In this document: positions 4,453 through 40,983 of the stretch, in pieces
How positions within the stretch are numbered: position 1 is the first letter of the stretch
How the letters are laid out: every line of letters starts with the position of its first letter
NCBI GenBank assembly: GCA_034679345.1
Contig: JAXDAY010000010.1
Location: 12,390 to 76,389, forward strand
DNA length: 64,000 bases
DNA from: Candidatus Eiseniibacteriota bacterium
GTDB lineage: Bacteria > Eisenbacteria > RBG-16-71-46 > CAIMUX01 > VGJL01
Direction: 5' to 3'
The notes under the pieces: model-generated
What the model saw: the letters and a program-made list of their open reading frames with translations, nothing else
What the model was told of the DNA's origin: nothing
The model's database searches: none
Position numbers and translations under genes: made by a program

Positions 4453-5742
4453 TCAGGAGGTGGAGAGGACCTCGTCGAGCAGCCGGGCGAGGTCGGCGGT
4501 CAGCCGTCGCCTCTCGAAGCGCTCGATCCCCGCGCCCACGGGGCAGACGGGACCGAGCTCGCCGGTCCGATAGAGGTCGTAGAGCCGCGCCAGATGCGCG
4601 GCGGCCGCGTCGGGATCCGTTGGAGGGGCCGCAAGGCCCGCCTGTAGCTCGCCGACGAGATCACGCGCCGCGCCATCCGGCACGAGGGCCAAGACCGGCC
4701 GACCCGCGCGGATCAGCTCGAAGGTCTTCCCCGGGAGAATGAGGCTTCCGCGCTCGCTCTCTTGCTCCAGCAGCAGCAGGACGCGCGCGCGACACAGCTG
4801 GAGGACGGCCTCGCGGTGCGGTATGGGATCGCGGAATCGGATCCGGCGCGCGAAGACCCTCCGCCGCGCGGACTCCTCGTGGGAGTCGTAGCGCGCGCCG
4901 ATGAAGTCGACCCATGTCCGCTGCGCGGCCTCGGGGCGGAGGCGGAAGAAGCGATCGAGAGCGTCGAGGAGCGGCTCGATGCTGCGATCGGGGTTCAGCT
5001 GGCCGGCGTGGAGAATCCGGAACTCCGAGTCGGGCTCGGGCGCCTGCGCGGGAAAGTCCTCCTCGTCATAGCCGTTCGGAATCACGGCGATCCGATCTCG
5101 GTCGAGCTTCGGGTATCTCCGGATGAAGTCGTCCCTCGTCGCCCCCGAGGTCACCACGAGCCGCGATGCGCGATTCACGACTCGTCGCTCCATGGAGCGC
5201 TGGATCGCATCGTGGATCGGAGTCGGGGGAGCGTAGCTCATCCGCCGGACCCAGGGATCCCTGAAGTCGGCGACCCACCCGACTCCGGGGCGGTGGATTC
5301 CCAGTCCGGCCAGATGGGCGCTGTCGGGGGATGAGGTCGTCAGGAGCACTCCGCCCTCGGCCAGGATCCTCCCGGCCACCGCGGAGGCGCGGCGCGCCCA
5401 GGAGGCATAGACGTCGGGCACGAAGAGGAAGCGGGCGACTCCACGCGCCAGGAGGTGACGCCGCTGGCTGCGGCGCGCCGCGCTCGCCCCACTCGCGACG
5501 TCGCGACCGGCGAGCCGGCCGAGAAGAGGCCCCGCGGAGATGCGAGTCACCTGGACCTCGGGGGGGACATCGTCGAGCAGGGAAGGATCGGTCATCCAGT
5601 AAGCCCCCTCGCGGACGGTGATCACATGGGGCGACCATCCGTGGGCAGGGAGGTACCGGGCGAACTTCAGGGAACGCTGGACCCCGGCGCCTCCGAGCGG
5701 GGGAAAGAAGTAGGCGAGGTAGGCGAGCCTTCTGGGTCTCAC
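4453..5742 (-). CDS. Glycosyltransferase family 4 (last gene of the glycosylation operon)
   Basis: ORF-track frame 4453..6213. The N-terminal 157 codons are R/G-rich and overlap the upstream gene. The likely true start is GTG at 5742, forming a GTGA overlap with the upstream stop. Protein begins RPRRLAYLAYFFPPLGGAGVQRSLKFARYLPAHGW and carries a GT4 C-terminal domain (EQESERGSLILPGKTFELIRAGRPVLA). Confidence 0.75.
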   Translation of the reverse strand: MRPRRLAYLAYFFPPLGGAGVQRSLKFARYLPAHGWSPHVITVREGAYWMTDPSLLDDVPPEVQVTRISAGPLLGRLAGRDVASGASAARRSQRRHLLARGVARFLFVPDVYASWARRASAVAGRILAEGGVLLTTSSPDSAHLAGLGIHRPGVGWVADFRDPWVRRMSYAPPTPIHDAIQRSMERRVVNRASRLVVTSGATRDDFIRRYPKLDRDRIAVIPNGYDEEDFPAQAPEPDSEFRILHAGQLNPDRSIEPLLDALDRFFRLRPEAAQRTWVDFIGARYDSHEESARRRVFARRIRFRDPIPHREAVLQLCRARVLLLLEQESERGSLILPGKTFELIRAGRPVLALVPDGAARDLVGELQAGLAAPPTDPDAAAAHLARLYDLYRTGELGPVCPVGAGIERFERRRLTADLARLLDEVLSTS

Positions 5743-7943
5743 TGGGGGCAGGGGCCGTCGATCAGTCCGACTCCCGCCATCCGGACCCCGGCCGGGCTCG
5801 AGAGCCGTATCCAGTAGAGCCCCGGAGCCACGGGATCCCCGGAGGCGTCCAGACCGTCCCACGCGGGAGATCCAGGGGCGAGCTGATCGAAGCGCCGCAC
5901 CAGATTCCCGGCCGCATCGACGATCACGCCGTCGGCGAGGCCGGGGAATCCGAGCAGCCGCAGGCCGCCGCAATCGCGTGAGTAGGGATTGGGGTAAGCG
6001 ATGAGCTCCCCCCCCGCGTCCATCCCGGCCGTGGGCGGGGTGATGCGGGCGAGTCCGCGCGATGTGCCCGCCCAGACCGTTCGGCCGTCCGGATCGAGGG
6101 CGAGGACCTCCGTGTTGGGATGCGGCAGATCGGGCGGCCCGTAGCGCGTGAAGACGAAGCCCTCCTCCTCCGGCGTCAACCGGACAATCCCGCCCTGCGA
6201 AGTCGCGACCCACGCCCCTCCGTCCGAGACGGGGAGCACGTCATTCACTTGCGGCGTCGGCAGGCGGTCGAATCCCGCGCCGAAGTTGGTGATCCGGCCC
6301 GGATCGATCAGGGATAGCCCACCCGTCGTCCCCACCCAGATGCGGCTGCCCTGCGATTCGATGCGGGTGATCGCATCGGAGATGAGCTTCCGCCCGGCCG
6401 TTTCCGTCGTGTAGAGGAACCATGTGTCATCGGCGCTCAGAGGGATCCGATCCGCGCCGAGATCCCACCGGTGCACCCCCGCGTCGGTGTAGCCGAGCCA
6501 GAGGATCCTGCCCACCGGACAGAGGGCCCGGACGCGATTCGCGAGCATCTGCGAACCCGGCGTGTCGGTGCGGAACTGACTCCACTCTCCCGAGGAGGCG
6601 TGGCGCATCCAAACGCCCTCGGCGAACTGCACCGCATCGGGAGCCTGATCGGAAGCGCCCCAGAGGTTGCCGAGATCATCGTATGCCAGATCTCGAAGGT
6701 TGCGCGGCGGACTCGCCTCGAAGCTCCCCTGCGAGAGTCGATCGAGATCGCAGCCGGTCTCCCGGCAGCAACATTGCGCGAACCAGAGATCCCCTTCCGG
6801 GCCGAATGCGAGATCGAAGGTCCAGTCCTGGAGCAGGCGTGGGACGCTCCAGAACACGCCGTCGAAGGTCTGATAGGTCGGCGGGGCGCCCCGCTGCGCG
6901 GTGGTCGCATGCAGGACGCGATCGGCGTCGAAGGCGAGGGCGAGATAATGGGAGCGCGCGCTGGGACCCGGGAAGACCGTGCGCACCCAGACGGAGCCGT
7001 CGAGACGCCAGAGACCGTCGAGGGCCTCCGCCGCGTCCCGGCCCCCGGCGTAGAGCGTGCCGTCGTCGTTGCGGACGAGACACGAGGCGTTGAAGCTCCG
7101 GTCTCCGACCTGAGTCCAGGAGCCGCCCCGCTCGAGCCGCCAGACTCCCTTCGCGCCCGCGGCCAGGAGATGGTCGCCCTCGGCAAGGAGGTCGACGATC
7201 GCCGGCGCGGCCGGAAGTCCCCCGGCCAGGGTCTCCCATACGCCGGAGCGCAGAACGCGGATGCCGTCATCGAAAGACGCGGTCCATTCGCCTGCGAACC
7301 GGACGATCCGATAAGCGGTCGGATCCGTCGGCCCGGTCGCATGGATCGTCCAGGCTCCCTGCGGATCGCGGTGCGCGACCCCTTCCTGAGTGGCAGCCCA
7401 GAGCCCGCCGTCATCCGCGGCCAGGTCGAGAACGTCGAAGGAGGGAAGGCCGCACAGGTCGATCCCCTCCTGACAGATGACGCGCTGCTCCCCGTCGACG
7501 AAGACGGCCAGTCCCCGGGTGGTCGCCACGAGGAGAGTGTCCGACTGGAAGCGGACGACGTGGATCCGGTCTCCCGGAATCGGGCGCAGGAGGCTTGTGA
7601 ACGGCTCCCAGGTTCCGTCGGCGGGATCGAGAATCGAGATCCCCGCCATCTCGGAGCCGAACCACAATCTCCCGTCGGGAGAAACGGCGACGCTCGTCAG
7701 CGAATCGCTCAGCAACCCGTCCGGCGCGCGATGATAGACCTCCACCGATGCGCCGACCGGATCGAAGCCGAGCACCCCGCCTCCCGTCCCTGCCCAGAGC
7801 CGCCCCTCGCTCGCGGCGAGGGCGCGCACGTCGTTCGTGTTCAGATAGACGGTGAAGCTCGGCTCGCCGGCGCCGGCCGCGACGCCGACGAATGCGATCA
7901 TGCCCAGCACGACGAATGGAAGACACGTACGTCGAAGACTCAC
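5739..7943 (-). CDS. Secreted beta-propeller repeat protein (two-component-regulator-propeller-like repeats) with C-terminal T9SS-type / FlgD-Ig-like sorting domain
   Basis: ORF-track frame 5739..8303. Likely GTG start at 7943 (GTGA overlap), giving signal peptide SLRRTCLPFVVLGMIAFVGVAAGAG. There are about 10 repeats of the type LWAGTGGGVLGFD / GRLWFGSEMAGISILD / RIWVGTTGGLSLID / TVWAGTSRGLARI. C-terminus is IAYPNPYSRDCGGLRL...GLYWIRLSSPAGVRMAGVGLI. Confidence 0.75.
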   Translation of the reverse strand: MSLRRTCLPFVVLGMIAFVGVAAGAGEPSFTVYLNTNDVRALAASEGRLWAGTGGGVLGFDPVGASVEVYHRAPDGLLSDSLTSVAVSPDGRLWFGSEMAGISILDPADGTWEPFTSLLRPIPGDRIHVVRFQSDTLLVATTRGLAVFVDGEQRVICQEGIDLCGLPSFDVLDLAADDGGLWAATQEGVAHRDPQGAWTIHATGPTDPTAYRIVRFAGEWTASFDDGIRVLRSGVWETLAGGLPAAPAIVDLLAEGDHLLAAGAKGVWRLERGGSWTQVGDRSFNASCLVRNDDGTLYAGGRDAAEALDGLWRLDGSVWVRTVFPGPSARSHYLALAFDADRVLHATTAQRGAPPTYQTFDGVFWSVPRLLQDWTFDLAFGPEGDLWFAQCCCRETGCDLDRLSQGSFEASPPRNLRDLAYDDLGNLWGASDQAPDAVQFAEGVWMRHASSGEWSQFRTDTPGSQMLANRVRALCPVGRILWLGYTDAGVHRWDLGADRIPLSADDTWFLYTTETAGRKLISDAITRIESQGSRIWVGTTGGLSLIDPGRITNFGAGFDRLPTPQVNDVLPVSDGGAWVATSQGGIVRLTPEEEGFVFTRYGPPDLPHPNTEVLALDPDGRTVWAGTSRGLARITPPTAGMDAGGELIAYPNPYSRDCGGLRLLGFPGLADGVIVDAAGNLVRRFDQLAPGSPAWDGLDASGDPVAPGLYWIRLSSPAGVRMAGVGLIDGPCPQ

Positions 7944-10018
7944 CTTGCCCCCTTCAGGCGCCCGCGGCGCACGAGAATCAGATCCAGGTCGAGGGCGAGG
8001 CTCTGGCGCCCCGCGTACTCGAGGTTCGCGGCGCAGAGAGCATCGAGAGTCTGGCCCTCCGGGTTTCCTGCGAGCGTGACCCATCCCGGGGCCGCGTCCG
8101 GCGGCAACCTGCGGTAGTCCTCCGGGAGGCGCTCCCAGAGCTCTGCGGAGAAGGGATGGATCCCGACGAGGCTCCATTCGCCGCGAAGCCACAGGAGCAG
8201 TGTAGGGTACTCCCAGAGGGCGCGGAAGATCCCCGCAGGGCCAGGACCGGGCAGGCGGCCGCAGCGAATCCGCCTGCCCGCGCGGCCGATCCGCTCGCTC
8301 CACTCGAGTCTGCGTCCCGCGAGGAGGAGGACGAGCCGTGCGGCAGCGAAGGGAATCGCCGCGACCAGAATCGCGATCGACGCGAGCGCGCCGTCAAGCA
8401 ACCGCTTCTCCCAGGAGCGCGCCGCCGGTCCGGCGCTCGAGAGGCGCAGGGCGGGAAATCCGAGAAAGTCGTCCATCCGCGCGCCGCGCCGCAAAGCCGG
8501 ATGGAATCGGGGAACGAACCGCACCGGGATCGCCTCGCGATTGAGTCGCGCCAGCACGCGTTCGGCTCCCCCACCGGGCCAGTCCTCGAAGAGCACGACC
8601 TCGTGGACTCGCTCATCGTTGACCCAGAGGCGCACCGCCTCCTCCACCTCGGCCGGCCGGCCGCCGCGAGGCGTCATGAGAATCGCCGCCTCGCCCGCCA
8701 GAGGCAGGATGTCGAAACCGAACTCCGGGTGCTGGCCGAGGCGGCGCTCGATCTCGGCGAGCGCCTCGGGCGTGGCGAGGACCCCGATGCGCCTCAGATG
8801 CAGCCGGCGCGAGCGCGCGCTCCCCTGAAGACTGAAGATCCCCCATCGCAGGAGCAGGATCAGCACGAAGGCCAAGGGCAAGAAGAGGCCCACCACCAGC
8901 CGCGAGTAGACCGGCGTCGCGAAGAGGAAGGTCGAAGCCATCATGATGAGCGCGGTGGCCGCGAGGGCGCGGCCCGTTCCGAGCACCTGCTCCCCCGCCT
9001 CCTCGCGACGCCGGCTTCGGTACATCCCGGCCAGGGCCATCGCCAGCAGTGCGACCGCGTCCGAGAAGAGGAGGAAGCGGCTGTAGCGGCCGAACCCGAA
9101 GGTCGGCTTCGTGAGGAATCCCCCGCTCAGATCGCGAATGACGTAGGCGAGCAGGAAGGCGAGATTGACGGCGATGAAGTCGGAGATCACCAGAACGATT
9201 CTGCGGATCGTCGAGGTGCGCATCTTGAGCCAATACAGGACGAAGCTCCACTTCTCGTAGTATCGAAAGGTCGATGCGAGGTGGAGCAGCAGGCCCTTGC
9301 CCGGGCGGCGCGCGCTTTCGCGCGCATAGTGATGAATCATGCTCGCGGCGGGGTGGTAGACGACCTTCCAGCCGCGCGTCTGCATCCGCTGGCACCAGTC
9401 GACATCCTCGAAGTAGAGGAAGAATCGCTCGTCCATCGGGCCGACATCCTCGAGCGCGCGGCGCCGGACGAGGAGGCTCGCGCCGATGCACCAGTCCACG
9501 GGGCGGGTCGATGCGTGGTCGTAGTCGAGCATCAGGTGCTCGCGGATCAACCGATGGTTCGGGAAGAGCCGCCCCAGGAAGGTCCGGCGCAGCAGGAAGA
9601 CGGAAAGCGTGTAGAAAGTGCGGCAGGAGTGCTGGAGGGAGCCGTCGGGATAGAGAAGCCTCGGGGCCGCGATCCCCACCGAGGAATCCCGCTCCATTTC
9701 CGCGACCAGCTCCTCGATGCTCCCGGGCTGCACTTCCACGTCGGGATTGAGCACCAGGAGATACTCCCCGCGACCCTCCTTGAGGCCCTGGTTCACCGCC
9801 CGGCCGAACCCGACGTTGCGGACGTTCTTGAAATAGCGGGCCCCCGCGGACGCGGCCGCGCGCTCCGATCGATCGTCGAGCGGGGCGTTGTCGACCACGA
9901 TCACCTCGATCCCGGGCCCCGCCCCCGCTGCGCGGATCCGGTCGAGGCAGCGGACGAGGACATCCGGGGTCCTGTAATGGACGATGACGATCGAGACGAG
10001 GAGTCCGGCCGAACTCAA
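7940..10018 (-). CDS. Fusion protein: GT2 glycosyltransferase domain + multi-TM region + C-terminal bacterial sugar-transferase (polyprenyl glycosylphosphotransferase, WbaP-like) domain
   Basis: ORF-track frame 7940..10624. The first ~200 codons overlap the upstream gene. The likely start is TTG at 10018 (TTGA overlap with the upstream stop), giving MSSAGLLVSIVIVHYRTPDVLVRCLDRI...VIVVDNAP...YFEDVDWCQRM (GT2). This is followed by 4-5 TM helices, then ...SLVGIHPFSAELWERLPEDYRRLPPDAAPGWVTLAGNPEGQTLDALCAANLEYAGRQSLALDLDLIL. The last block matches the sugar-transferase C-terminal motif (slvGPRP...vkPGiTGlaqv...Dl.Y), but the KFRTM region is divergent. Confidence 0.65.
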   Translation of the reverse strand: MSSAGLLVSIVIVHYRTPDVLVRCLDRIRAAGAGPGIEVIVVDNAPLDDRSERAAASAGARYFKNVRNVGFGRAVNQGLKEGRGEYLLVLNPDVEVQPGSIEELVAEMERDSSVGIAAPRLLYPDGSLQHSCRTFYTLSVFLLRRTFLGRLFPNHRLIREHLMLDYDHASTRPVDWCIGASLLVRRRALEDVGPMDERFFLYFEDVDWCQRMQTRGWKVVYHPAASMIHHYARESARRPGKGLLLHLASTFRYYEKWSFVLYWLKMRTSTIRRIVLVISDFIAVNLAFLLAYVIRDLSGGFLTKPTFGFGRYSRFLLFSDAVALLAMALAGMYRSRRREEAGEQVLGTGRALAATALIMMASTFLFATPVYSRLVVGLFLPLAFVLILLLRWGIFSLQGSARSRRLHLRRIGVLATPEALAEIERRLGQHPEFGFDILPLAGEAAILMTPRGGRPAEVEEAVRLWVNDERVHEVVLFEDWPGGGAERVLARLNREAIPVRFVPRFHPALRRGARMDDFLGFPALRLSSAGPAARSWEKRLLDGALASIAILVAAIPFAAARLVLLLAGRRLEWSERIGRAGRRIRCGRLPGPGPAGIFRALWEYPTLLLWLRGEWSLVGIHPFSAELWERLPEDYRRLPPDAAPGWVTLAGNPEGQTLDALCAANLEYAGRQSLALDLDLILVRRGRLKGAR

Positions 10019-10773
10019 GCGTCCACCTCGCGCGGACGAACGCGCCGCGGCCGCCCCAGGAGGCGCTTGAAAAAGAGCCGCCAGATCACGAAGACCGCCT
10101 CCGCGACGATCCGGCGGTTCATCTTGCTGATTCCCGCGCGGCGGTCGACGAAGACGATCTCGATCTCCCTGATCCTGAAGCCGAGCCGCCAGGCGAGGAA
10201 GCTCACCTCGATCTGGAAGGAGTATCCATCCGAGTGGATCCTGTCGAGATCGATCGCCTCGAGGACGGCCCGGCGGAAGCACTTGAAGCCGCCGGTCGCA
10301 TCCTTCACGGGCAGCCCCGTGATCACGCGCGAAACGACATTCGCCATGTAGGAGAGCATGAGCCGGCGCAGGGGCCAGTTGACCACCGTGACCCCGTTCA
10401 GATAACGGCTGCCGAGGACCAGATCGGCCTCCCGCGACGCCTCGATGAAGTTCGGGATCTCGTTCGGATCGTGGCTGAAGTCGGCGTCCATCTCGAAGAT
10501 CAGATCCGCCCCGTGCCGCAAGGCGTAACGGAACCCGTCGATGTAGGCGCTGCCGAGTCCCATCTTCTGCGGCCGGCGAAGGGAGTGGACCCGCGGAACC
10601 TTCGCCGCCAGCTCCTCGACCCAAGCCCCCGTCCCGTCGGGCGAGTTGTCGTCGACGACGAGAACCTCCATGTTCGGGCCCAGCGCGAGCAGACGCGGGA
10701 TGAGGGAGCGGACGTTGTCCAGCTCATCGTAAGTCGGGACGATGACCATCACACGCGGGAGGGCGTCCACCAT
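10015..10773 (-). CDS. GT2 polyprenol-phosphate glycosyltransferase (dolichyl-phosphate mannosyltransferase DPM1-like)
   Basis: 252 aa. MVIVPTYDELDNVRSLIPRLL...EVLVVDDNSPDGT...EMDADFSHDP...GSRY...TGGFKCFRRAVLE is the classical DPM1/PpmA-like architecture. ATG at 10773; stop overlaps the next gene's start. Confidence 0.85.
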   Translation of the reverse strand: MVDALPRVMVIVPTYDELDNVRSLIPRLLALGPNMEVLVVDDNSPDGTGAWVEELAAKVPRVHSLRRPQKMGLGSAYIDGFRYALRHGADLIFEMDADFSHDPNEIPNFIEASREADLVLGSRYLNGVTVVNWPLRRLMLSYMANVVSRVITGLPVKDATGGFKCFRRAVLEAIDLDRIHSDGYSFQIEVSFLAWRLGFRIREIEIVFVDRRAGISKMNRRIVAEAVFVIWRLFFKRLLGRPRRVRPREVDA

Positions 10774-10788
10774 GAGTTCGGCTCCCGC

Positions 10789-11718
10789 CTACACCTCCGT
10801 CGAGTGGAACCACTCGATCGTAAGACGCAAGGCGTCTCTCACGTCGACCTTCGGCTCCCATCCGAGGCGCTGCCTCGCCTGGGTGATGTCGGGCTGGCGC
10901 ACCTTCGGATCGTCCTCGGGAAGGGCGGAGAAGACAATCTCGCTGCGGCTTCCCGTGAGCCGCTTGATCTCCTCGGCCATCTCCAGGACGGTCATCTCCT
11001 GCGGGTTGCCGATGTTCACCGGATCGGCGAGCTCGCTGTGCATCAGCGCTTCGACCCCGCGTACGAGGTCGGTGATGTACCCGAACGAGCGAGTCTGGGA
11101 GCCGTCGCCGAAGATCGTCATCGCCTCCCCTCGGAGCGCCTGCATGATGAAGGTCGGAACCGCGCGGCCGTCGTCGCGGCGCATCCTCGGACCGAAGGTA
11201 TTGAAGATTCGAACGATCTTCGTGTCGACGCCGTGGTAGCGCCGGTAAGCCATCGTCAGGGCCTCGGCGTAGCGCTTCGCCTCGTCGTAAACCCCGCGGA
11301 CGCCGATCGGGTTCACGTTGCCCCAGTACGACTCGGGCTGGGGATGGATCAAGGGATCCCCATAGACCTCGGAGGTGGAGGCGAGCAGGAAGCGGGCCTT
11401 CTTCTCCTTCGCGAGGCCCAGGGCCTTGTGGGTGCCGATCGCGCCGACCTTCAAGGTGTGGATCGGCAGGCGGAGGTAGTCGATGGGGCTCGCCGGGCTC
11501 GCGAAGTGGAGGACGAAGTCGAGGGGCCCCTCTACGTAGATGTAGTTCGTCACATCGTATTCGATGAACTGGAATCTCGGATCGCGAATATGGCTGATGT
11601 TCGCGACGGCGCCGGTGAGGAGGTTGTCCATGCAGATCACCTCCATCCCCTTGTCGAGGAGGTGGTCGCAGAGATGCGAGCCGATGAAGCCCGCTCCGCC
11701 CGTGATGAGAGCCCTCAT
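10789..11718 (-). CDS. uxs: UDP-glucuronate decarboxylase (UDP-xylose synthase, UXS/ArnA-decarboxylase-like SDR)
   Basis: ORF-track frame 10789..12099 with a junk N-terminal extension. True start [16 protein letters not shown] at 11718 (ATGA overlap with upstream stop). Hallmark block [36 protein letters not shown]. Confidence 0.85.
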
Positions 11719-13627: not shown

Positions 13628-13628
13628 G

Positions 13629-17278: not shown

Positions 17279-17282
17279 CCGT

Positions 17283-36400: not shown

Positions 36401-37468
36401 CCGCACACGGACGATGTTCGACCAGAACGTCGAGTACCAGTTCTCGGTCACGCCGCCGAGGATCGCTCCCGCCGGATTCGACGTGAACCAGTTGTCGAAC
36501 GGACCGCCTGCGTTCTTCGTGGTGACCATCTGGTCGAACACGCCGACCAGCACGTCGAGGTTCGCGTGGTAGTACATGGCGTGGAACAGCGGCCCGCCGC
36601 CATCGTTGGTCGTCTCGACGTAGGTTTCCACGTTCTGGAGCTTCGGGCTCCTCGGATCGTCCTCCCAGACCAAGTAGCCGTCGTCGAGGTGCAGATTCAT
36701 GACGCCCGGCTGCATGTAGAGGAAGTCGTTCCCCGAGCTGCGGCTCAGATCGAGGACGTTCGTATTGATGCCAGCGCCCGTGAGGGTGGCTTCGTTGAAC
36801 TCGATGGTCCCGCCGAAGGCGCCGTTCCAGTTGACGCCGGTCGCCCACACCACGTCGGCGTCGAAGGTGACGAGGACATGGTTGTCGTTGGGGCCGTCGT
36901 CGACCGAGAGATCGTTCGCGATGCCGGTGATCTCGACCCGCGTGATCACGGGGCCGTCGCCGACGATGAGAGTCGAGACGTCGATGCTGTCATAGCCGGT
37001 GAGGTCTCTGACCTCTCCCGCCTTGAGCGCGATCTCCTCGATCGCACCGTCCTCGAACTGGGCGTCGACGAGCCCGTTGGGGAAGGTGAGATAGAGAACG
37101 TTGTCCCCGTCGTTGCTGCCGTAACCCATCTCGGTGAGGTCCATGGTCTCCGAGACGAAGTCGTCGTCGGGAGTCCCGGTGTCCTCTCCGATCATCGCCG
37201 GATCGATGGCCTCGTTGAAGACCAGCACGACCCGCGGCCCGGTTGGGTTAAACGTCGTGGCAACTAGATACGGCGCACCGCTCACCGGGGTCTCTTGCGG
37301 TGGCAAGAGGCTTGTCCCAAAGCTGGTGGGATACGCCGGGTAGTTGATGACCGTGTTCTCCGCCGGCGCAAGGTCACGGGTGTCGGCGTATGCCCCGTAG
37401 ACCGCACCGAGCAAGGTGAGCGCTAGGATAACCATGAAGACAGTGCTCCTGGTCCTGAATCCGCTCAT
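24419..37468 (-). CDS. Giant (~4349 aa) acidic secreted cell-surface protein: signal peptide, >15 Ig-like/cadherin-like modules, C-terminal T9SS-type / FlgD-Ig-like sorting domain
   Basis: ORF-track frame 24419..37744, uninterrupted. True start MSGFRTRSTVFMVILALTLLGAVYGAYA at 37468, preceded by AAGGAGGAAGAGGGTG. Recurrent module-start motifs DxxAPxx / DxxPPxx every ~200-300 aa (DKDAPIVSNF, DQTAPGAFLMW, DREAPAVVYGP, DMDAPTATLTADP, DTIPPHMTITEV, DWTAPPFALLHP, DTTAPDPVNITNI, DNIPPTARVVAF, DLTAPIVEFHGG). Extreme D/E excess with few K/R. The C-terminal block is YTYPNPFDPADGDALIHFALSKTSDVTIKVYDFAGNYVTTL...GIYWGGTASDGTKLANGAYIVRVTASDG. Confidence 0.85.
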   Translation of the reverse strand: MSGFRTRSTVFMVILALTLLGAVYGAYADTRDLAPAENTVINYPAYPTSFGTSLLPPQETPVSGAPYLVATTFNPTGPRVVLVFNEAIDPAMIGEDTGTPDDDFVSETMDLTEMGYGSNDGDNVLYLTFPNGLVDAQFEDGAIEEIALKAGEVRDLTGYDSIDVSTLIVGDGPVITRVEITGIANDLSVDDGPNDNHVLVTFDADVVWATGVNWNGAFGGTIEFNEATLTGAGINTNVLDLSRSSGNDFLYMQPGVMNLHLDDGYLVWEDDPRSPKLQNVETYVETTNDGGGPLFHAMYYHANLDVLVGVFDQMVTTKNAGGPFDNWFTSNPAGAILGGVTENWYSTFWSNIVRVRNFSINDVNIDDVGVTIPGSAQFFEDYQGQLAVPDDTISIHVGGGIVRSSYDENKDPSDPDNDDLSNDALYIYLSLPILPAQAAQIDDGTLDITQNFDLQGFAFGGNEVVDYQPPDGDNFPVIIIRDFSESADPYEQGCRIRFAEPVEGGTDLQDVDGNSYYDANLFWTPVMEESRPRLVTLTNDWVSGEDGWTFDEPNQTYTAYLRFYESGIDDGDQYFLYPVLRGNEGSWDKTKMATYLDRAIALGNMRPRQIDGVNSPHRIGLSIYVGDGLPPYGNVPPPPNGTIWQTVEGDEITSPSELAFLLAAADWQGNVGRIETINPEETAWEWLYPGQDFFPCRVYIEPVYCSSPPALEGQLKLYGLHYIHGCNGLDPDRVRFERLKEIVVNGNDLDAGEVWETIGTVGGSDPDAIGERGDQLIYRFNSDNGCRDDLAFLEAAYGGASRFFSYGPDDRWYSYYNADNDYIVGFPVYSSRDAVIEDVNENDVYDEGIDIVVIGSDTYSENIPDGVPLTRFTTYDDDSNANPAYYWAEQADDCDGTPNDWENLDPSDYIFRENRENYTDYGDDLDPALIGLNLWKIDWDPCGDETQSDGDYIVRTIAITRSGEEDQIQEHQYDPDNWNPLELQIVTVNCSEVDVDLTVVEAFVPLYDDQGDGDPSNDTWSYDIVTLDLDTTPPDIDEMPKNARFFRVRAVPAGEEIENIVFTATFTGEPNEVIGPNPDGDSYADLNGLPGFQYRDDPVRDTRSEFLNQRSYAPYLDDERIRDVNENWLYDPGIDEVLDAGRNAPFVDTPEGQLLVPLVREDVYWDGIDWVVGDWDNDGQTVDDQDSVNQADSVEPYFAYYDLAGYAVAGSQLCDLTATVESSRECPESDLTGTDFESILFRDWTPPIMTGPVRVETEDDEVVDVFHPVSDGDPYQVLGPDENPATSRTFLVHVTAEDSDEIEWVRLWYRPNPACTTDRPGWKLLSAAQMDTFPDDTPWDSYPDRDYPYNFRWTVHEQGLDLTDGNYQFFAEAIDGIGNYSWIPVYPYGFGFNQWAGEDLAYVIDPVKPDDLCLPSETVLNIGDGRTIVGEVDPDFDNVAQVRFYFAPRIQNTSYAGSDVDANLMLALEKPILDQRGAGVVVCIGGVELVSGVDYTASAGDTFITFAVAPDADAEITVSYNFMGTGVPPDAIQYPGAYSDGWLLIAAGDDVEPFTVEWAEGPEGGVPDPENPDGDMGTLDWSGANAYDLVAVGLMDLDGSGWYEDTSVCDLVEPIISEGNHVILREVARPIVHLYGLDYEQGDEWGYPQQEPPAAPELGWPGNPFGLAPAGTPEHKGSGVENDVFVTASTTDATAEITEVKLDFYQAFESDPFSTVLLDVVNDFYSGDKALSMALTMYVADYYEVRSDEIENVALWIREEGAVDYTSLPMSNVGHPDYYQVIYDGFMPGTVYEYRFFIDKIGDDDGNYADRRNSSGGQGTTSLIALPDEFYYYMFDTSVLESDAYRVLVTVTDNKGMVGTNLSDGSDAPQGPIMFMYDKDAPIVSNFWADNGGVMPGAESEITVHLESTDGPDINVITTRTVVFQYSPNKNDDGTPDEWLTFAIDRDPADGWSGVLHFGGAGFDPPESDGYDNDGDGEVDLPADPDEIVSVLPVRAVVFDDAGYGGDPTDDLFPGSGNPVYAMLEPALIYDGYAPTTMINNPHDGDTFLFGDVIQVTGTADDHATPESPASAIDYVVFEYRFEDADWIEIDPTPNDNTDLNRIEPTEEGQVTFNVDFDTNWLGTREDTYLRFRMLATDVAGNTTIEDDLHADEVVVIVDDQTAPGAFLMWMNTELCGCDRLTDETGYANRVVTLYGMVTAGSALELEDLVGVDIMLQPDGGEAVILGRADDIAFGDIPLDCRGDYTPGANTAFFVLEWDTDNGPDGRYQDGLYQLWAEALDADGNRTTSVHSNIQVDREAPAVVYGPEGGRPFVNLAMYFNDGVVDHESPVIAPDPYTGDVEFYVYTPADDMIDVLTLQWRLPGTLDWNDVAIEFHYAPGPPEVAGHKQWIAHIEDFADNAAGLGIPEGVLEWRVLATDAACNTNANQADPAYVTAAVDFSDPTLWDFSDNQPYGEIAPGENVDFHVVLQDAITDVRHVQLYFKLAGDETKYVIASTPEGGLGPDDTVEGTLDTPNCQWLFDASWVWPTEVFHDTPIEVWVMAIDPAGNALDWKAADYVVRDENPPVATKIIDVEAKVFAFDTEDASEDANTYVWVDRDGSDPSDTEDDYDYYSDFVLSTAGGANIPDETESDEVIGMWKNTWPRDVNEGFLGNNDLMNKMKVARLVTIVARTRFGDDFNGGDQEIPGPPLPDGDDGIEFVEFFATPVDEQGQAIGDPVTIGKDEYPNGGNYYYLWHLYWDLTETNLDGSLKWSGWYKLSAKATDEAGNVEEVGQTTTAIIKVDMDAPTATLTADPDADRIQRNEVVTFLASTDPANEDDTVEFFFKRTRDVNFPGSYHSFDEDWSATDGDINPDHTRPYSFNLDLGSVGLENPDDVDWPLPLQVGEQYDFSTLVEDEVGNATDQVTNLTEGRGLTFEIIDTIPPHMTITEVQRTFGDTEQIMNPTALHASSIEHINAKLLTGHLDLSYVNFVYRKLGTADTPTLIDAVTEQVDRFTWRLTGPWDLTTLDDQTWYEVAALGADDAGNTEPFDAAAKILVFVDWTAPPFALLHPTEATSKWCDAEIDERNGHRIFDLIAQITDRGQTYENGDVQHDDVFDAVFEWKWSYEDSTLWRPCGVSEDYLYDDALNTLSKTMDFDAMEFDEDGCKPNPDFDALGELIDLRVRVMDVAGNANVIYSWKNTLDTTAPDPVNITNIKLAVDDPTQDPIDFGQVTEVTRGLEVEIWATASDDEANIPNAPLGHETFVTQMQFQVAEDLNKDDEPDGDIWRDLGTIVFDPADLDDPSAVTGSVLWNTTGLVVDGEYLLRVTAIDECGNAATSGNVNVIIRDNIPPTARVVAFDPDQDPHGENPLTYLYIYALAESDPSIEDVLFQYDTIEGENDLDHEWVNIGFGEQVTGQHDYTTEVLWRTRIETTAFNFQEGALFWLRALAKDSDGNRYGDDPADVVPMMRAELIRLDDVNDPTEWPYDGAWTFRALRTAPPIVEDVSVQIESADENSEPQAILTVDMPNSTDRPRVVVLGESDNVVAPNDYWWIYSAGVPSDPENGQFGLVRSLDDPTVWRGRISLTETYDDEYPIDECLHFKVFVTGMQNPEWFIDEVTTAIHEFPVTTELGTNGTVVTQGYGDLYSQVTVVSGAWMEDDACLLVSETIAPQLSPEERVYLTPLKDTAWHIEVTKSQSEYYDDFREGYLPTIVIKYSDEALNAALAENEGVTEEMLTVRRWDYDYSDAEGIMNIRVNTEANEISFNVDNLSSINSDGTVFEVFAPKSGAPVFLANVTPHSAYLSNWVTDADPIFSFYLHDIGGQGIEASTVKVKVDDRDVATFYDVSDFAEDVIATWVWGAGGAHLMSANDDGNDGHSTIYELDYFHSPIQRDWLAEGDHTITVEYRTHGTDDLTSVTMPFTVDLTAPIVEFHGGWVSNPLLRNVHGYIAGDDAMLTVRMYDPLSGIFVRPERQEFIQDPDCDEIIDDVELFLEPFTDPVGGFECFNPIDWGIHYDLWRVDGEDEQLDIDEFEERELLHEGTADELLPYLEPPLYGAENIYDPSEELLVKLPIVGGGRIQDGDILEVTLYSQKTRTLLGEGPALQCDVVDTLVVGGETLYVLDGCWFDFLSQQRIIYQQGVLDQVRNSGSKYVEQRFIVDALAPECAIILPASVHDPNTPMVIEVTAADTGVGVGSSAEDLVVIIRGPDGEEIVPENEEWNNGHYTATIPAPLAVGDYTITVTARDRLGHTCSSTKTVRVEATMLTLTDVYTYPNPFDPADGDALIHFALSKTSDVTIKVYDFAGNYVTTLASHEQMTPSKLGGIYWGGTASDGTKLANGAYIVRVTASDGARTEEANLKVVLWRE

Positions 37469-38106: not shown

Positions 38107-40983
38107 CTAGCGGACCAATACGATCTTGCGAACGAACGTCTCCGCTCCCAAGGCGATCCTGACGTAATAAACTCCAGCGGGAGCCTGCGCCCCGAGATTC
38201 GTCTCCCCGGTCCAGGCCCACTCTCCGCCGCCCGCTCCGATCTCGCCATTCCCGATGATTTGAACTTCCTTGCCCTGAACATCGAAGACCGCGACGCGAA
38301 CCTGAGTGGCGAATCCCGGGACGATCCGGATCGGACTGCCGGGCAGATACGGGTTGCGGAAGAGGATGCGTCCACCCTCGAGCCGAGGGTCGAGACTCGC
38401 CAGCGAGATGCCATCGCCGGCTAGGTCGCCGCGCGCCAGATCCTTGTCGTACAGGCTGCCCCCGACCCGGTCGATCCGCGAACCCGCCAACCGGTCGGAG
38501 TCGAGAATCCGGAAGACGCAACGTCCGACCCGACCTCCGGTCCACTGGATCTCTTCCGAGAGATCGAACCTCGGGATGAAGGCGACGCGCGCCGTCCCTC
38601 CCGATTCGCCCTCGCGCGCCGCGAGGAAGTCGTGGGGCGCGCTCTCTCCCGGGGTCTGCTGGAGGGACTGGAAGTCGAGCACGGTCCCGTCGAAGGCGAG
38701 TTCCCACTCCCCGCCGATCAGCGTGTCATCCGCCTCGAGGTCCATCTCGACGAGCAGGCTGTCGCCGCCCTGGCTGAGGCTGGCCACAAGATGAAGCGAT
38801 CCCATCGGATCCGAAGCGTTCTCCACGCGGGCGACTCGCGCCCCCTCCCCCACGAGGCCGCAGGGAGGATAGCTGACGCAGGTGAGACCGTCTGCCGTGG
38901 GATCCGGACCACAGGCGCCGAACGGGGCAGCCGGAGGCGGACCATTGGCGAACTGATAGTTCAGGCTGCCGAGAACGTCGGCGAGGTCGAGCGCGCCGGA
39001 ATCGTTGAAGTCGGCCGCGTCCATGCAGGCCGGAGCCTCGCCGCCGCCGTACTGGTAGTGCAGGATCAGCAAGGCATCCGTGATGTCAATCGCCCCGTTG
39101 GCGTCGGCATCGCCCCGAATGAACCCGCTGCCGTGGATCAAGACGCTGCCGTCGACCACCTCGGGAACGACCGAGGTCGCATCGCAGAGGGTCATGCGGT
39201 TGAGCGTCCTTTGATCCTCGACGAGACGGATCTCCGTCGGGCCGCCCGGAGCGTTTGGCAGGACGTTGAAGACGAGATCGATGAACGTGTCATCGCCCGG
39301 CGGGATCGCATCGGGACAGAGGAAGGAGAAGAGCACGCCGACACGTCCGCTACCTGCAGCGCCCGAGTGCTGTACATGTTCGGCTCCCTCGCAACGGGTG
39401 CCCGTTGTGGAGACCCCCTGGTAGCCGAGGACAAGCGGGTCGTACTCGAACCGGAATCCCAGTCCGAGGATCGGCTCGCTGTTGCTGCCGCGAATCGGAA
39501 TTCTGACCGCCGTGTCGCCCGGATCGAAGCTCAGGCCCGACGCGACTTCGAAGGAGAAGCCGACGATTGAGCAAGTGAAGCTCCCCGGGAGGCAATTGTT
39601 CGTCTCATCAGACTCGATGACGACCGAGCCGGCATCCGCGCACGCCTCGAGCGTATGGTCCCCCGCCGCGTACCCCTCGAGCGTGCACCAGCTGGTCCAG
39701 GCCTCGCCGTTGACCGCGAGCGCCGGGACCTGCAGGTTGCAGAGGGGATCCCCGTCGAGCGATATCTGGCAGAGCGACGCCGAAGAGGCGGCCTGCCCGA
39801 TGTTCCGCACCAGAGCGCGGGCGCCGCCTGGGCAGTCGGGCGAGTCCAGCTCGAGCTGCGAGACGATCAGATCGGGCCGGAGGCAGGAGATGAACTCGGT
39901 TCGGAGATTGTTCTCCTCGTCGATCTCCTGGATCAGATTCGTCGCGTCCGCCCGCGCGGTGACGGAACGGTTCCCGGGCCCGTAGCTTCCGAGATCGCAA
40001 TAGTCCGTCCAGACCGCCTGTCCCGGCTGCAGGGCGGGCACGGTCTTGTCGCACAGGGCGTTGCCGTCCAGCGAGATGCGGCAGATGGTGGACGGCGCGT
40101 CCGCCTCGCCGACATTCCGGACGTAGGCCCTCGCCTCGGTGGCGCAGTTCGCGCTCGGGAGGAAGTCGATGTCCTGCACCTCGAGATCGGCGGTGGCGCC
40201 GACGGTCTTGCGGATGCGGACTTCGTCAACGAAGGCTCCGTTGGGAATCACCGGCACGGTGGTGTTCGAGTTCGAGAAGAAGGCGAAAGCGACCCAGACC
40301 TCGGATCTCCCGACGACGGCTTGGAGGTCGAAGCGCTCGTTGCGGTGCCATTGGTCTCCGAAGTCGCCGGATCGGAACTCGCCGGCAAAGGACTGCCCAT
40401 CGGTGCTCGATGCGACGAATAGACGGTCGAGGTTCCCCGATTGGCAACGCACCCACCAATCGTAGAGGACCTCCGCGCCCGTCGCGTCGGAGAGATCGAA
40501 GGGGCCGGCGATCATGAAGGCGGAGGAGCCGTTGGGATAGCTCTCATCGCATGGCTCGTAGCCGTCGCCGCCAAAGTTTCGGTACCCGTTCGCGCACCAC
40601 GCGGCGGAACTTCCGACCGAGGACCTGCATCCCTGGACGTCATCCCAGGTCCATCCAAGCCCGCCCCACCGGAGCGTCCAAGGCCCACAGTCGCCGCCCT
40701 GCGGGAATCCGTCCTCGAACCCCTCCGTGCAGAGGGTGATGACCGACATGACCTCGGAAACGGATTCCTCCGACGCGGGCCGGACGCCTCCAGGGGCGAG
40801 ATCCGAACCGTCATCCACCACCGTCCACTCGTCCTCGTGGCCGATCGTGACCCGGACTCCGCGCAGGATCTGCGGCTCGCCCAGCGTCCCGGCATCCTCC
40901 GCGGATGCAGGGAGCTGACCGAGCCAGCAGGCCGAGAGAACGACGAACAGCGAGCCGACCCACAGGCGACCCCGATGCTTCAT
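38107..40983 (-). CDS. Secreted multidomain surface protein: two CARDB domains, cohesin-like module(s), type-I dockerin, C-terminal T9SS-type / FlgD-Ig-like sorting domain
   Basis: ORF-track frame 38107..41235. True start MKHRGRLWVGSLFVVLSACWLGQLPASA at 40983 with RBS GGGAGGG. The CARDB unit is duplicated (VRNVGEADAPSTICRISLDGNALCDKTVPALQPGQAVWTDYC / VRNIGQAASSASLCQISLDGDPLCNLQVPALAVNGEAWTSWC). Cohesin-like SFDPGDTAVRIPIRGSNSEPILGLGFRFEYDPLVL. Dockerin GDADANGAIDITDALLIL...ADFNDSGALDLADVLGSLNYQF (two DxNxDGxxxxxD loops). C-terminus ILFRNPYLPGSPIRIV...VAVFDVQGKEV...AGVYYVRIALGAETFVRKIVLVR. Confidence 0.8.
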   Translation of the reverse strand: MKHRGRLWVGSLFVVLSACWLGQLPASAEDAGTLGEPQILRGVRVTIGHEDEWTVVDDGSDLAPGGVRPASEESVSEVMSVITLCTEGFEDGFPQGGDCGPWTLRWGGLGWTWDDVQGCRSSVGSSAAWCANGYRNFGGDGYEPCDESYPNGSSAFMIAGPFDLSDATGAEVLYDWWVRCQSGNLDRLFVASSTDGQSFAGEFRSGDFGDQWHRNERFDLQAVVGRSEVWVAFAFFSNSNTTVPVIPNGAFVDEVRIRKTVGATADLEVQDIDFLPSANCATEARAYVRNVGEADAPSTICRISLDGNALCDKTVPALQPGQAVWTDYCDLGSYGPGNRSVTARADATNLIQEIDEENNLRTEFISCLRPDLIVSQLELDSPDCPGGARALVRNIGQAASSASLCQISLDGDPLCNLQVPALAVNGEAWTSWCTLEGYAAGDHTLEACADAGSVVIESDETNNCLPGSFTCSIVGFSFEVASGLSFDPGDTAVRIPIRGSNSEPILGLGFRFEYDPLVLGYQGVSTTGTRCEGAEHVQHSGAAGSGRVGVLFSFLCPDAIPPGDDTFIDLVFNVLPNAPGGPTEIRLVEDQRTLNRMTLCDATSVVPEVVDGSVLIHGSGFIRGDADANGAIDITDALLILHYQYGGGEAPACMDAADFNDSGALDLADVLGSLNYQFANGPPPAAPFGACGPDPTADGLTCVSYPPCGLVGEGARVARVENASDPMGSLHLVASLSQGGDSLLVEMDLEADDTLIGGEWELAFDGTVLDFQSLQQTPGESAPHDFLAAREGESGGTARVAFIPRFDLSEEIQWTGGRVGRCVFRILDSDRLAGSRIDRVGGSLYDKDLARGDLAGDGISLASLDPRLEGGRILFRNPYLPGSPIRIVPGFATQVRVAVFDVQGKEVQIIGNGEIGAGGGEWAWTGETNLGAQAPAGVYYVRIALGAETFVRKIVLVR

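Follow-up and report, generated by a model that had tools for sequence, protein, structure and literature searches.

The 64,000-nucleotide stretch of Candidatus Eiseniibacteriota DNA analysed here (the window) raises the question of why three proteins of different architecture should end in one and the same module near a gene for a PorV-like outer-membrane barrel. The initial annotation read the module as a sorting domain of a type IX secretion system (T9SS) or of a non-canonical system using this tag, and the barrel as PorV/PorQ-family-like, PorV being the T9SS cargo shuttle. Candidatus Eisenbacteria belongs to the FCB superphylum. Our best reading is that the window encodes components of a type IX-style apparatus for surface sorting, whose features are collected in Table 1.

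Table 1. Features of the putative surface-sorting locus, in window coordinates.
Feature	Position	Strand	Description
Glycan-synthesis operon around PorZ-like gene	4453..18131	-	Pfam and NCBIfam matches
PorZ-like protein	5739..7943	-	734 aa; signal peptide, two beta-propellers, C-terminal Ig-like tail
PorZ-type tail, propeller protein	5742..6020	-	residues ~642-734; Cys pair PGC...GPC
Outer-membrane protein	22698..24326	-	542 aa; signal peptide, PorV/PorQ-family 14-strand barrel, TSP3 repeats, OmpA-like domain
OmpA-like peptidoglycan-binding domain	22704..23012	-	PF00691, E 1.2e-21
Four thrombospondin type 3 (TSP3) repeats, linker	23052..23345	-	PF02412; Ca-binding D-x-D-x-D-G, Cys-containing
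PorV/PorQ-like barrel	23379..24209	-	residues 40-316; 14 strands in model
Giant acidic exported protein	24419..37468	-	4,349 aa, pI 4.05; type A tail at end
Putative type A T9SS sorting tail, giant protein	24422..24721	-	TIGR04183, PF18962, PF13860 on isolated tail
CARDB x2 / cohesin / dockerin exported protein	38107..40983	-	958 aa; Pfam; type A tail; signal-peptide-like N-terminus
Putative type A T9SS sorting tail, CARDB protein	38110..38382	-	TIGR04183 on isolated tail; PF13860 on full protein

The module shared by three C-termini

The module spans about 90 residues and lies at the extreme C-terminus of all three proteins, essentially where it had first been placed. Pairwise BLASTP of the last 100 residues aligned the three segments as one family (25-29% identity, E 4e-7 to 7e-4). 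An HMM built from the three tails and run against the 629 six-frame open reading frames (ORFs) of the window matched exactly these three, with no further tail-bearing ORF among them. N-P, D, G, W, G, G and G-Y are invariant in all three families and in the orthologs of each. The [YF]PNP start proposed in the initial annotation needed correction for the CARDB protein, whose tail reads FRNPY; the N-P within it stood. The true starts of the three long ORFs, at 7943, 37468 and 40983, lie later than the first in-frame start codon, and each is followed by a signal-peptide-like N-terminus. Public assemblies carry the same 734-aa gene call, and the 4,349-aa call is likewise the same in a public assembly; the giant protein has no internal sequence repeats.

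A profile of the tails aligned over its full length with solved T9SS tails (PorU 6ZA2, E 3e-9; PorZ 5M11, E 9e-9; RgpB 5HFS, E 1.5e-3), PorU and PorZ being the closest, which upholds the earlier assignment to T9SS-type C-terminal sorting domains with a FlgD-Ig-like centre. Judged by profile matches, the tails are of two kinds. Scanned alone, the giant tail scored 32.6 bits with TIGR04183 (cutoff 23), 27.6 bits with PF18962 (gathering score 27) and 36 bits with PF13860, and the CARDB tail 27.8 bits with TIGR04183, which puts both above the curated type A threshold; on the full-length proteins, TIGR04183 and PF18962 fell just under their cutoffs. The isolated propeller tail had no TIGR04183 match in NCBIfam, and its top match there was the PorZ tail (profile positions 672-744 of 757, 29.3 bits), which makes it a PorZ-type tail. 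FlgD_ig (PF13860, gathering score 27) scored on all three full proteins in Pfam, with 33.9 bits for the CARDB protein and 32.4 and 21.0 bits for the others. Compared with the standard type A domain (TIGR04183/PF18962), the tails carry a FlgD-like W-x-G-x(4-5)-G-x(5)-G-x-Y centre. Their database homologs have PF18962 and PF13860 together and bear the NCBI name 'T9SS type A sorting domain-containing protein'; homologs with both domains come from KSB1, Marinimicrobia, Cloacimonadota, Latescibacterota and Bacteroidota.

A PorZ-like protein in a glycan-synthesis operon

The propeller protein probably does not belong with the cargo. Its AlphaFold model (pLDDT 90.2, pTM 0.82) found P. gingivalis PorZ (PG1604, 5M11) as the best PDB match (E 4e-28, whole-chain TM 0.66/0.65), whereas hybrid two-component sensor domains reached just TM 0.34-0.36. 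Both proteins have two beta-propellers and a C-terminal Ig-like tail and are of similar size (734 versus 776 aa), and the window protein's tail matches that of PorZ and not type A. Identity is 18%, and the NF052228 PorZ score of 55 bits lies below the equivalog cutoff of 260; because of this, and since PF21544 has no match in the protein, the PorZ identification rests on predicted structure. As a structural homolog of a T9SS attachment-complex component, the protein is a likely PorZ counterpart, so that not all three tail-bearing proteins would be unrelated cargo and the window would have a second T9SS-associated gene. Its modelled tail has seven strands (residues 648-727), and the Cys pair, a difference from PorZ, is kept in orthologs.

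A further difference from PorZ is the setting of the gene inside a glycan-synthesis operon, which encodes a methyltransferase, GT4, a TMEM260-like GT-C with TPR, an epimerase, an ArnC-like GT2, a second epimerase, GT2, a GT2 fused to a polyprenyl glycosylphosphotransferase, the PorZ-like protein and GT4. Start and stop codons overlap at 7940-7943 and 5739-5742, and both the gene order and the position of the PorZ-like gene are the same around orthologs of 36-54% identity on other Eisenbacteria contigs. No barrel gene adjoins it. PorZ presents anionic LPS for the attachment of cargo. By analogy, and because its gene lies within this conserved operon, the PorZ-like protein probably binds the glycan made by the operon and presents it for cargo attachment, and it would be a component of the cell surface that retains a PorZ-type tail of its own. 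NCBIfam names PorZ the 'anionic LPS delivery protein'.

The outer-membrane barrel and its gene pairing

The outer-membrane protein contains both motifs on which the initial annotation had based its recognition, GARALGMGGAF and YWNPAGL, and its place in the PorV/PorQ family is borne out by NF033709 (114 bits, cutoff 90); PGAP names its orthologs 'PorV/PorQ family protein [Candidatus Eisenbacteria bacterium]'. By sequence, the sole PDB match of the barrel was F. johnsoniae PorV (Fjoh_1555). The model places its 14 strands across residues 82-316, and the top Foldseek matches were again PorV (8gl6_F and 6h3i_F, TMt 0.63-0.65), with FadL at ~0.47. PorV (6H3I/8GL6 chain F) and the window barrel share the curated family, the 14-strand fold and the N-terminal GxRxxGMGGA and WNPAG motifs. 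However, they are only 16-17% identical, the window barrel has ~280 residues and PorV ~370, the window barrel continues into TSP3 repeats and an OmpA peptidoglycan-binding domain, and its gene is paired with that of one giant substrate instead of porU.

In the linker, the TSP3 repeats have invariant D, G and C columns in 83 orthologs. The OmpA domain matches many solved OmpA-like domains, including the PorE C-terminal domain (6TOP), and the periplasmic portion of Capnocytophaga gingivalis OmpA (5WTL, 38-40% identity) matches the TSP3 region and the OmpA domain together. Myxococcus TraB has the same arrangement (NF033763, 132 bits over the C-terminal part), but the N-terminal membrane domains of these two proteins are not PorV-like, unlike the window barrel. 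In a genome scan, only Eisenbacteria gave full-length matches of the barrel-TSP3-OmpA protein; by-eye reading of C-terminal sequences found relatives of the barrel also fused to SH3b-, LysM- and TPR-like extensions.

The giant gene lies upstream, its stop codon separated from the barrel gene by a 92-nt gap with no terminator-like site on the minus strand. A tail-bearing giant ORF likewise ends ~100 nt upstream of a barrel gene in every Eisenbacteria locus examined (L001, L004/5, L006/7, L010, L011 and L012, of which L010-L012 are Eisenbacteria MAGs from a genome search), which represent six lineages of 50-100% identity with differing downstream flanks. Pairing extends to stand-alone barrels (L090, L091 and L092); the L090 cluster holds a giant, a 290-aa barrel, a barrel-TSP3-OmpA protein and a CARDB tail-protein, and other Eisenbacteria have a second pair, of a tail-protein and a 291-aa barrel, 2 kb away. 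In 44 of 72 metagenome loci, the gene immediately after a tail-bearing one encodes a barrel of the same clade; away from the barrels, these loci have a background of ~24 tail ORFs among ~793 genes (~3%), so that tail genes are enriched roughly 20-fold directly upstream of barrels. These pairs span GC 0.33-0.72, one of them in a MAG labelled Acidobacteriota by NCBI, although MAG taxonomy labels are unreliable. Pairing of tail genes with barrels is thus general. The CARDB-protein gene has no barrel gene of its own beside it. Given its fusion and its constant upstream giant gene in the loci examined, the barrel seems to be more than 'the PorV shuttle' of the first reading; these features, with the further Eisenbacteria pairs, indicate a dedicated carrier or anchor.

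A candidate sorting route and its alternatives

In known T9SS, type A tails are bound by a PorV-family barrel in the lateral gate of the translocon and the cargo is pulled to the surface, PorV being the general carrier for such tails. We consider it moderately probable that the window encodes sorting of this type, in which the giant protein has a carrier or anchor dedicated to it and tethered to the wall. The Sec-type signal peptides predicted on all four proteins suggest that they would reach the periplasm first. A PorV-family barrel may then hold the giant and CARDB tails with its surface loops, as carrier barrels do inside SprA (PMC10994853), and pull them to the cell surface, presumably through a T9SS translocon. 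The barrel encoded next to the giant gene would most likely be its own carrier and anchor, our basis for their binding being the adjacency of the two genes. Its 14-strand domain would hold the giant tail at the surface, and the complex would be fastened to peptidoglycan by the TSP3 repeats and the OmpA-like domain in the periplasm. Such a tether seems to conflict with the need of a shuttle to leave the translocon.

In the attachment complex of P. gingivalis, within the PorQ-PorZ and PorV-PorU sub-complexes, a PorV-family barrel holds a surface protein by its uncleaved C-terminal tail (PMC10947112). The window has in common with them a PorZ-like protein and tails nearest those of PorU and PorZ, but its barrel is partnered with a 4,349-aa acidic protein instead of PorZ or PorU, its PorZ-like gene stands apart from any barrel gene and no PorU was found in it. 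SprB-SprF of F. johnsoniae and PG1035-PorP-PorE of P. gingivalis are published parallels (PMC9143113) in which, as here, the gene of a very large surface protein is followed at once by that of its own carrier or anchor barrel. PorP also binds PorE, which attaches to peptidoglycan through an OmpA_C-like domain (PMC9143113, PMC12618676, PMC12773672); in the window protein, barrel and OmpA domain are one polypeptide. Type B tails have cognate shuttles (PMC12618676), whereas the window tails are type A-like or FlgD-Ig-like, the barrel is of the PorV/PorQ family with no PorP_SprF match in Pfam at E<0.01, and the OmpA part is without the TPR, propeller and CRD domains of PorE (NF052230, 56 bits, cutoff 600). 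The overall system thus seems to resemble SprB/SprF, PorZ/PorQ and PorP/PorE, and a single polypeptide may do the work of the Bacteroidota pairs SprF/SprB, PorQ/PorZ and PorP/PorE with PG1035. If a type A tail had a private carrier, this would depart from the published rule that all type A tails use the general PorV (PMC12618676).

It is unlikely, on the present evidence, that this is a canonical T9SS in which the barrel serves all type A cargo as the general PorV shuttle and lies beside the giant gene by chance. That account would fit the barrel's score above the family threshold, its top PDB match and the ordinary type A character of two of the three tails, and the CARDB protein, having no barrel of its own, requires some shared carrier. 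Yet the giant/barrel adjacency is kept in each of the six Eisenbacteria lineages read, also in those with a different downstream flank; the second tail-protein/barrel pair and the 44 metagenome loci speak for pairing as well, and a barrel tethered through OmpA differs from known PorV proteins, which shuttle between complexes. We regard as more doubtful still a T9SS-independent module, akin to two-partner secretion, in which a tail and its cognate barrel would by themselves suffice for export or anchoring, with neither translocon nor motor. As the initial annotation had stated for PorK/L/M/N, SprA and PorU, the remaining window genes, when scanned against Pfam and NCBIfam, include no translocon, motor or sortase gene, and none of PorK/L/M/N, Sov/SprA, PorU, PorT and PorW occurs in the 64-kb window or the ~100 kb of Eisenbacteria flanks read; our search found no literature linking Eisenbacteria with T9SS, and the wide GC range and the Acidobacteriota label point the same way, insofar as such labels can be trusted. 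Against this, barrels of the 14-strand PorV/FadL type, with a plug segment at the N-terminus, are not known to let folded proteins of several thousand residues through, and in solved complexes such a barrel acts as a carrier inside SprA (PMC10994853). The tails of the giant and CARDB proteins also exceed the curated type A threshold, and the window has a gene for a PorZ-like protein, a kind known only from T9SS.

We find it very improbable that the tails are mere terminal Ig-like structural domains of the FlgD type with no sorting role and the barrel a FadL-like channel for hydrophobic substrates. Pfam did score FlgD_ig above Por_Secre_tail, FlgD proteins were the best PDB sequence matches of the tail profile, and FadL came second among the fold matches of the barrel. 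PorV is nevertheless ahead of FadL by sequence and by fold, and FlgD aligns with the tail centre alone (profile positions 30-86), whereas the YPNP-type first strand and the last strands are aligned by T9SS tails only. The module lies, moreover, without exception at the C-terminus, both in the three unrelated architectures and in their orthologs, and the genes that carry it are enriched directly upstream of barrels.

A common C-terminal module in three window proteins

The three tail-bearing proteins of the window (propeller, giant and CARDB/cohesin/dockerin) end in modules of one family. Their last ~90-100 residues align at pairwise identities of 25-29% (E 4e-7 to 7e-4), and, of the 629 six-frame ORFs of the window, an HMM built from the three tails matched no proteins but these, each at the extreme C-terminus and with 0-5 residues between the end of the tail and the stop codon. 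The single shared module proposed in the initial annotation is thus confirmed; the [YF]PNP-type start ascribed to it does not extend to the CARDB tail, which reads FRNPY. Nine columns (N-P, D, G, W, G, G, G-Y) are invariant across the three tail families and their orthologous tails. The true starts of the three genes lie at 7943, 37468 and 40983, and each is followed by a signal-peptide-like N-terminus (basic, hydrophobic and with an A-x-A pattern), which we judged by eye to be a Sec signal peptide.

Genes were called from codon-position GC and family scans and are listed in the table. The GC content of the window is 62-71%, and its proteins are identical to metagenome-assembly proteins (Logan SRR24057989; a 99,396-nt NCBI contig). 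Beyond the left end of the window, the cell-division cluster merely continues; for the CoA-transferase ORF at 63243-63914, no public record was found.

Features of the window, with paired genes of two comparison loci in the last row
Feature	Position	Strand	Basis
ftsI, mraW, mraZ		-	gene calls, family scans
GT4	4453-5742	-	gene calls, family scans
Propeller (PorZ-like) protein	5739-7943	-	gene calls, family scans
Tail of PorZ-like protein	5742-6020	-	
Glycan operon	7940-18131	-	gene calls, family scans
GT2 fused to polyprenyl glycosylphosphotransferase	7940-10018	-	
ArnC/PgfS/AglJ-like polyprenyl-phosphate sugar synthase	11715-12665	-	
TMEM260-like GT-C enzyme, C-terminal TPR repeats	13629-16181	-	
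nusB, ribBA, ribE, ribD		-	gene calls, family scans
Outer-membrane (barrel) protein	22698-24326	-	gene calls, family scans
Barrel region of the same protein	23352-24326		
Giant protein	24419-37468	-	gene calls, family scans
CARDB/cohesin/dockerin protein	38107-40983	-	gene calls, family scans
purA, clpX, clpP, tig, then central-metabolism genes		- (purA-tig)	gene calls, family scans
Omp85-family-like short protein	52904-54088	+	
Putative 555-aa ORF	54369-56036	+	
CoA-transferase ORF	63243-63914		
Second pair: 434-500-aa protein with tail-like module and 291-aa barrel	L006 13672-15848; L012 11624-13821		

The family scans included TIGR04183 and PF13860, the two models suggested in the initial annotation. 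Pfam FlgD_ig scored 33.9, 32.4 and 21.0 bits on the three full proteins, and TIGR04183 (cutoff 23 bits) matched the giant and CARDB tails scanned alone with 32.6 and 27.8 bits, respectively, but gave no match to the propeller tail scanned alone; on full-length proteins it scored 22.2 and 20.4, slightly under the cutoff. The giant tail alone also matched PF18962 (27.6 bits, gathering score 27). By curated score and C-terminal position, the giant and CARDB tails are predicted T9SS type A sorting domains.

In a set of ten tails, TIGR04183 matched eight and the PorZ model, through its tail region, all ten, while CHU_C (PF13585) gave a weak match in two. FlgD proteins ranked at the top when the ten-tail profile was compared with the PDB, but they covered only its centre (positions 30-86); the alignments to PorU (6ZA2, E 3e-9), PorZ (5M11, E 9e-9) and RgpB (5HFS, E 1.5e-3) took in the first as well as the last strands. 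The predicted structure of the propeller tail is a seven-strand Ig-like sandwich (pLDDT about 80-90). Tail relatives in the databases carry PF18962 and PF13860 and are named 'T9SS type A sorting domain-containing protein' or 'FlgD immunoglobulin-like domain containing protein' by NCBI, with named examples from KSB1, Marinimicrobia, Cloacimonadota, Latescibacterota and Bacteroidota.

The giant protein is acidic (pI 4.05, 18.7% Asp+Glu) and contains no internal sequence repeats at E<1e-5. Pfam recognized almost nothing in it apart from one Big_13 domain immediately before the tail, and the PorU model (NF033707) aligns by its C-terminal end, positions 946-1087, to the final ~140 residues of the protein at 50 bits.

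The PorV/PorQ-family barrel and its tail-bearing neighbors

The assignment of the adjacent outer-membrane protein to the PorV/PorQ family was borne out by both sequence and predicted structure. NF033709 (PorV/PorQ, cutoff 90 bits) matched at 114 bits, with residues 40-316 aligned to profile positions 3-326 of 326, and orthologs are named 'PorV/PorQ family protein [Candidatus Eisenbacteria bacterium]' by NCBI; Pfam PorV (PF19572) reached merely 17.6 bits against a gathering score of 27. For the barrel part, the only sequence match in the whole PDB was F. johnsoniae PorV, at E 6.7e-4 for the single sequence and E 3e-13 for a 12-sequence profile of the full-length protein. In a model built from 83 sequences, a predicted 14-strand barrel (residues 82-316) is followed by a low-confidence linker and an OmpA domain. 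PorV (8GL6_F/6H3I_F) was the best structural match of the barrel (TMt 0.63-0.65), ahead of FadL (about 0.47) and TodX, and the TSP3 and OmpA part resembles the periplasmic portion of C. gingivalis OmpA (5WTL). Four TSP3 repeats with invariant Asp/Gly/Cys columns are kept in all orthologs.

A profile search with the barrel alone returned 9,789 cluster representatives at E<=1e-3. The closest relatives are mostly stand-alone proteins of 250-350 aa, the closest stand-alone barrels being named just 'hypothetical protein' in their source records; TSP3/OmpA is present in 14 of the best 147 relatives, and a local HMM check covered 143 barrel relatives. Scanning species-representative genomes with the full barrel-OmpA alignment was driven by TSP3-repeat patterns, so that 77 of 80 loci were TSP3-OmpA proteins (Myxococcota and others); the only three full-length matches were all from Eisenbacteria MAGs. 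Relatives of the barrel region (P0345-P0491) show repeated fusions to differing periplasmic C-terminal modules, namely OmpA and, by eye, SH3b-like (…NVRSGPG…GWV…), LysM-like and TPR-like modules. These recurrent fusions are consistent with a general function in wall attachment of the barrel.

The giant and barrel genes are consistently neighbors. In the window, 92 nt separate the stop of the giant gene from the barrel gene, and a terminator/promoter scan of the gap found no coding-strand terminator-like site, which is weak evidence. Comparison loci L001 (identical), L010 (75%), L004/5 (58%), L006/7 (52%), L011 (51%) and L012 (50%) likewise have a huge tail-bearing ORF whose end precedes the barrel gene by ~100 nt, even where the downstream genes differ. 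Stand-alone barrel relatives were found behind a giant tail-bearing gene in all three contexts examined (L090, L091, L092). More broadly, a metagenome scan with the barrel alignment yielded 80 loci (GC 0.33-0.72), 72 of them with >=500 nt available upstream, and in 44 of these 72 a same-strand ORF with a C-terminal tail ended <=700 nt upstream, usually at 12-230 nt; about 793 kb elsewhere in the scanned loci contained ~24 ORFs of this type. Partner proteins encoded upstream are between about 300 and >3,300 aa long and have the look of a varied set of cargo. These pairings suggest that PorV/PorQ-like barrels of a large clade act as one-to-one carriers or anchors of type A-like substrates in lineages outside Bacteroidota, most of them uncultured.

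A porU-porV operon, in which the ~1,000-1,200-aa partners would be PorU, was also considered. This idea was dropped because the partners look by eye like diverse cargo (Kelch, M6-like metalloprotease); a PDB search with the concatenated partners of three metagenome loci (L108, L118 and L162, with L155 left out) returned output filled by Kelch matches.

Pairs also occur in multiples. In the Eisenbacteria loci L006 and L012, the giant/barrel pair is followed ~2 kb downstream, past a LacI-type regulator, by a second pair; the stop of its tail protein overlaps the start of its stand-alone barrel, which has GARG.G..GA and YWNPG motifs. The second pair is followed by a 518-aa protein whose end resembles an outer-membrane barrel. 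Locus L090 (1-20873 of a Logan SRR28370466 contig, 38% GC) holds an expanded module of four consecutive genes, which encode a giant of 9,737 aa, a barrel of 290 aa, a barrel-TSP3-OmpA protein of 550 aa (full-length identity to the window barrel protein 36%) and a >3,030-aa CARDB/fn3 protein with tail domains. The L092 giant/barrel pair (HUU46011.1) comes from a MAG assigned by NCBI to Acidobacteriota, outside the FCB superphylum, and its giant's tail has FSPFDPW in place of the YPNP motif; either this is a binning or taxonomy error or the module reaches beyond the FCB phyla.

Proposed export and anchoring by a private barrel

Domain identity and gene order suggest how tail binding, tethering and glycan presentation might be connected. 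Sec export would precede all later steps, after which PorV-family barrels would recognize type A tails at the T9SS translocon. In T9SS generally, type A cargo requires Sov/SprA for export, PorU cleaves off the tail and the protein becomes joined to a surface glycolipid, while PorV-family carriers bind substrate tails and dock at the lateral gate of SprA/Sov. The barrel encoded downstream of the giant gene would be the giant's own carrier and anchor, with its OmpA domain fixing it to peptidoglycan. The closest parallels to this scheme are SprB-SprF and PG1035-PorP-PorE, in which a large surface protein is anchored by a cognate barrel and the OmpA_C-like domain of PorE binds the wall (PMC9143113, PMC12773672, PMC12618676); PorQ-PorZ is another (PMC10947112). 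Carrier barrels inside SprA bind tails through loops (PMC10994853). Unlike these precedents, the module studied here has barrel and wall anchor fused in one protein, and this natural fusion supports the tying of carrier barrels to the cell wall that was proposed for PorP-PorE. In operation, the module would resemble a type B tail with a PorP-SprF family barrel, but it falls outside that family, as Pfam/NCBIfam scans gave no match to the type B models TIGR04131 (tail) or PF11751 PorP_SprF (barrel).

Eisenbacteria are members of the FCB superphylum. We found no literature tying them to T9SS, and published lists of T9SS-bearing (FCB) phyla do not include them (PMC11285876). The initial annotation reported no other T9SS core gene in the window. 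This stands for PorK/L/M/N, Sov/SprA and PorU, none of which was found there by Pfam and NCBIfam scans of ~50 candidate ORFs and the unknown ORFs; it needs amending for the PorZ-like protein, a T9SS-associated protein with a predicted PorZ-type fold. None of PorK/L/M/N (GldK-N), Sov/SprA, PorT, PorW/SprE and PorU was present in the window or the Eisenbacteria flanks examined. Flanked by the genes for methylmalonyl-CoA mutase and the epimerase is a short Omp85-family-like gene (394 aa; 72 bits on NF047779, whose cutoff is 200), and a putative ORF with no Pfam/NCBIfam match comes next.

Several explanations of the tail and barrel genes were weighed. To our knowledge, T9SS has been studied almost solely in Bacteroidota, where all type A substrates share a single general PorV and only type B tails have known private carriers. 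All type A tails are said to use PorV (PMC12618676). The module departs from this scheme by pairing type A-like tails with PorV/PorQ-clade barrels. That T9SS outside Bacteroidota routinely uses such barrels as private carriers for individual type A-like substrates has, in our estimate, an even chance of being right, and private carriers of this kind would contradict the view of one PorV for all type A tails. The simpler alternative, that the window barrel is a general PorV, is consistent with its family assignment, and the repeated adjacency of such barrels to individual tail-bearing genes points away from it; we consider it unlikely. A purely structural Ig domain would explain the FlgD matches, and we regard it as extremely improbable given that the tails align over their whole length with those of T9SS proteins.

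Because no translocon, motor or sortase gene was detected in the window or flanks, the tail and barrel could also form a T9SS-independent pair, which we think quite improbable. In its fullest version, tails and cognate barrels would constitute a self-contained route of export and anchoring across many uncultured phyla with no T9SS translocon or motor, tethered through OmpA in Eisenbacteria and serving a 4,349-residue protein; the likelihood of this is low indeed. Private carriers within T9SS are a much more likely account than a translocon-free module. The original reading of T9SS sorting tails beside a PorV-like barrel holds in part, and T9SS-type components are now extended to Eisenbacteria. 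What was already known is the PGAP labels of these proteins. New and testable are three features: barrels and tails pair one to one outside Bacteroidota, the barrel is fused to an OmpA domain, and a PorZ-like gene sits in a glycan operon.

A PorZ-like protein within a glycan operon

The propeller protein has ~20 full-length orthologs at 36-75% identity. Its AlphaFold model (26 sequences; pLDDT 90.2, pTM 0.82) consists of two propellers and a seven-strand C-terminal sandwich, and its top Foldseek match in the PDB was P. gingivalis PorZ (5M11; TMq/TMt 0.66/0.65 over the whole chain, E 4e-28, 18% identity). The next matches were double-propeller sensor domains of Bacteroides hybrid two-component systems, at TM 0.34-0.36. 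The tail also had the PorZ tail as its best match (29.3 bits). PF21544, the PorZ N-terminal propeller, had no match in the protein at E<0.01. The two-propeller and tail architecture is thus predicted to be arranged as in 5M11, and we use the name PorZ-like instead of PorZ because, despite the fold match, the protein did not pass the equivalog cutoff of NF052228 (55.2 bits vs 260).

The gene is embedded in a set of glycan genes, its start overlapping the stop of the GT2-polyprenyl glycosylphosphotransferase fusion gene and its stop overlapping the start of a GT4 gene. Also upstream are genes for a GT2, an epimerase, the polyprenyl-phosphate sugar synthase and a second epimerase, and further ones for the TMEM260-like GT-C enzyme, a GT4 and a methyltransferase. 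On other contigs, PorZ-like orthologs (54% and 36% identity) have the same genes around them in the same order, which recurs in two more assemblies; the conserved Eisenbacteria order always includes the PorZ-like gene. The enzyme set suggests periplasmic glycosylation of protein or lipid.

PorZ is part of the PorU/V/Q/Z attachment complex, where it binds the glycolipid used for anchoring, and its NCBIfam label is 'anionic LPS delivery protein'. The PorZ-like protein would accordingly be a glycan-presenting attachment component, a role that its gene's place in the operon fits. The presence of a PorZ homolog among glycan-operon genes independently supports, on genomic grounds, the part played by PorZ in glycan delivery, and the operon points to an anchoring-glycan gene set in a phylum without a cultured member. 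The tail of the PorZ-like protein and those of its orthologs (P0122-P0140) share two conserved Cys (YPNPF.PGC … DGPC), a pair missing from the two type A tails, and a disulfide may join the first strand to the C-terminus.
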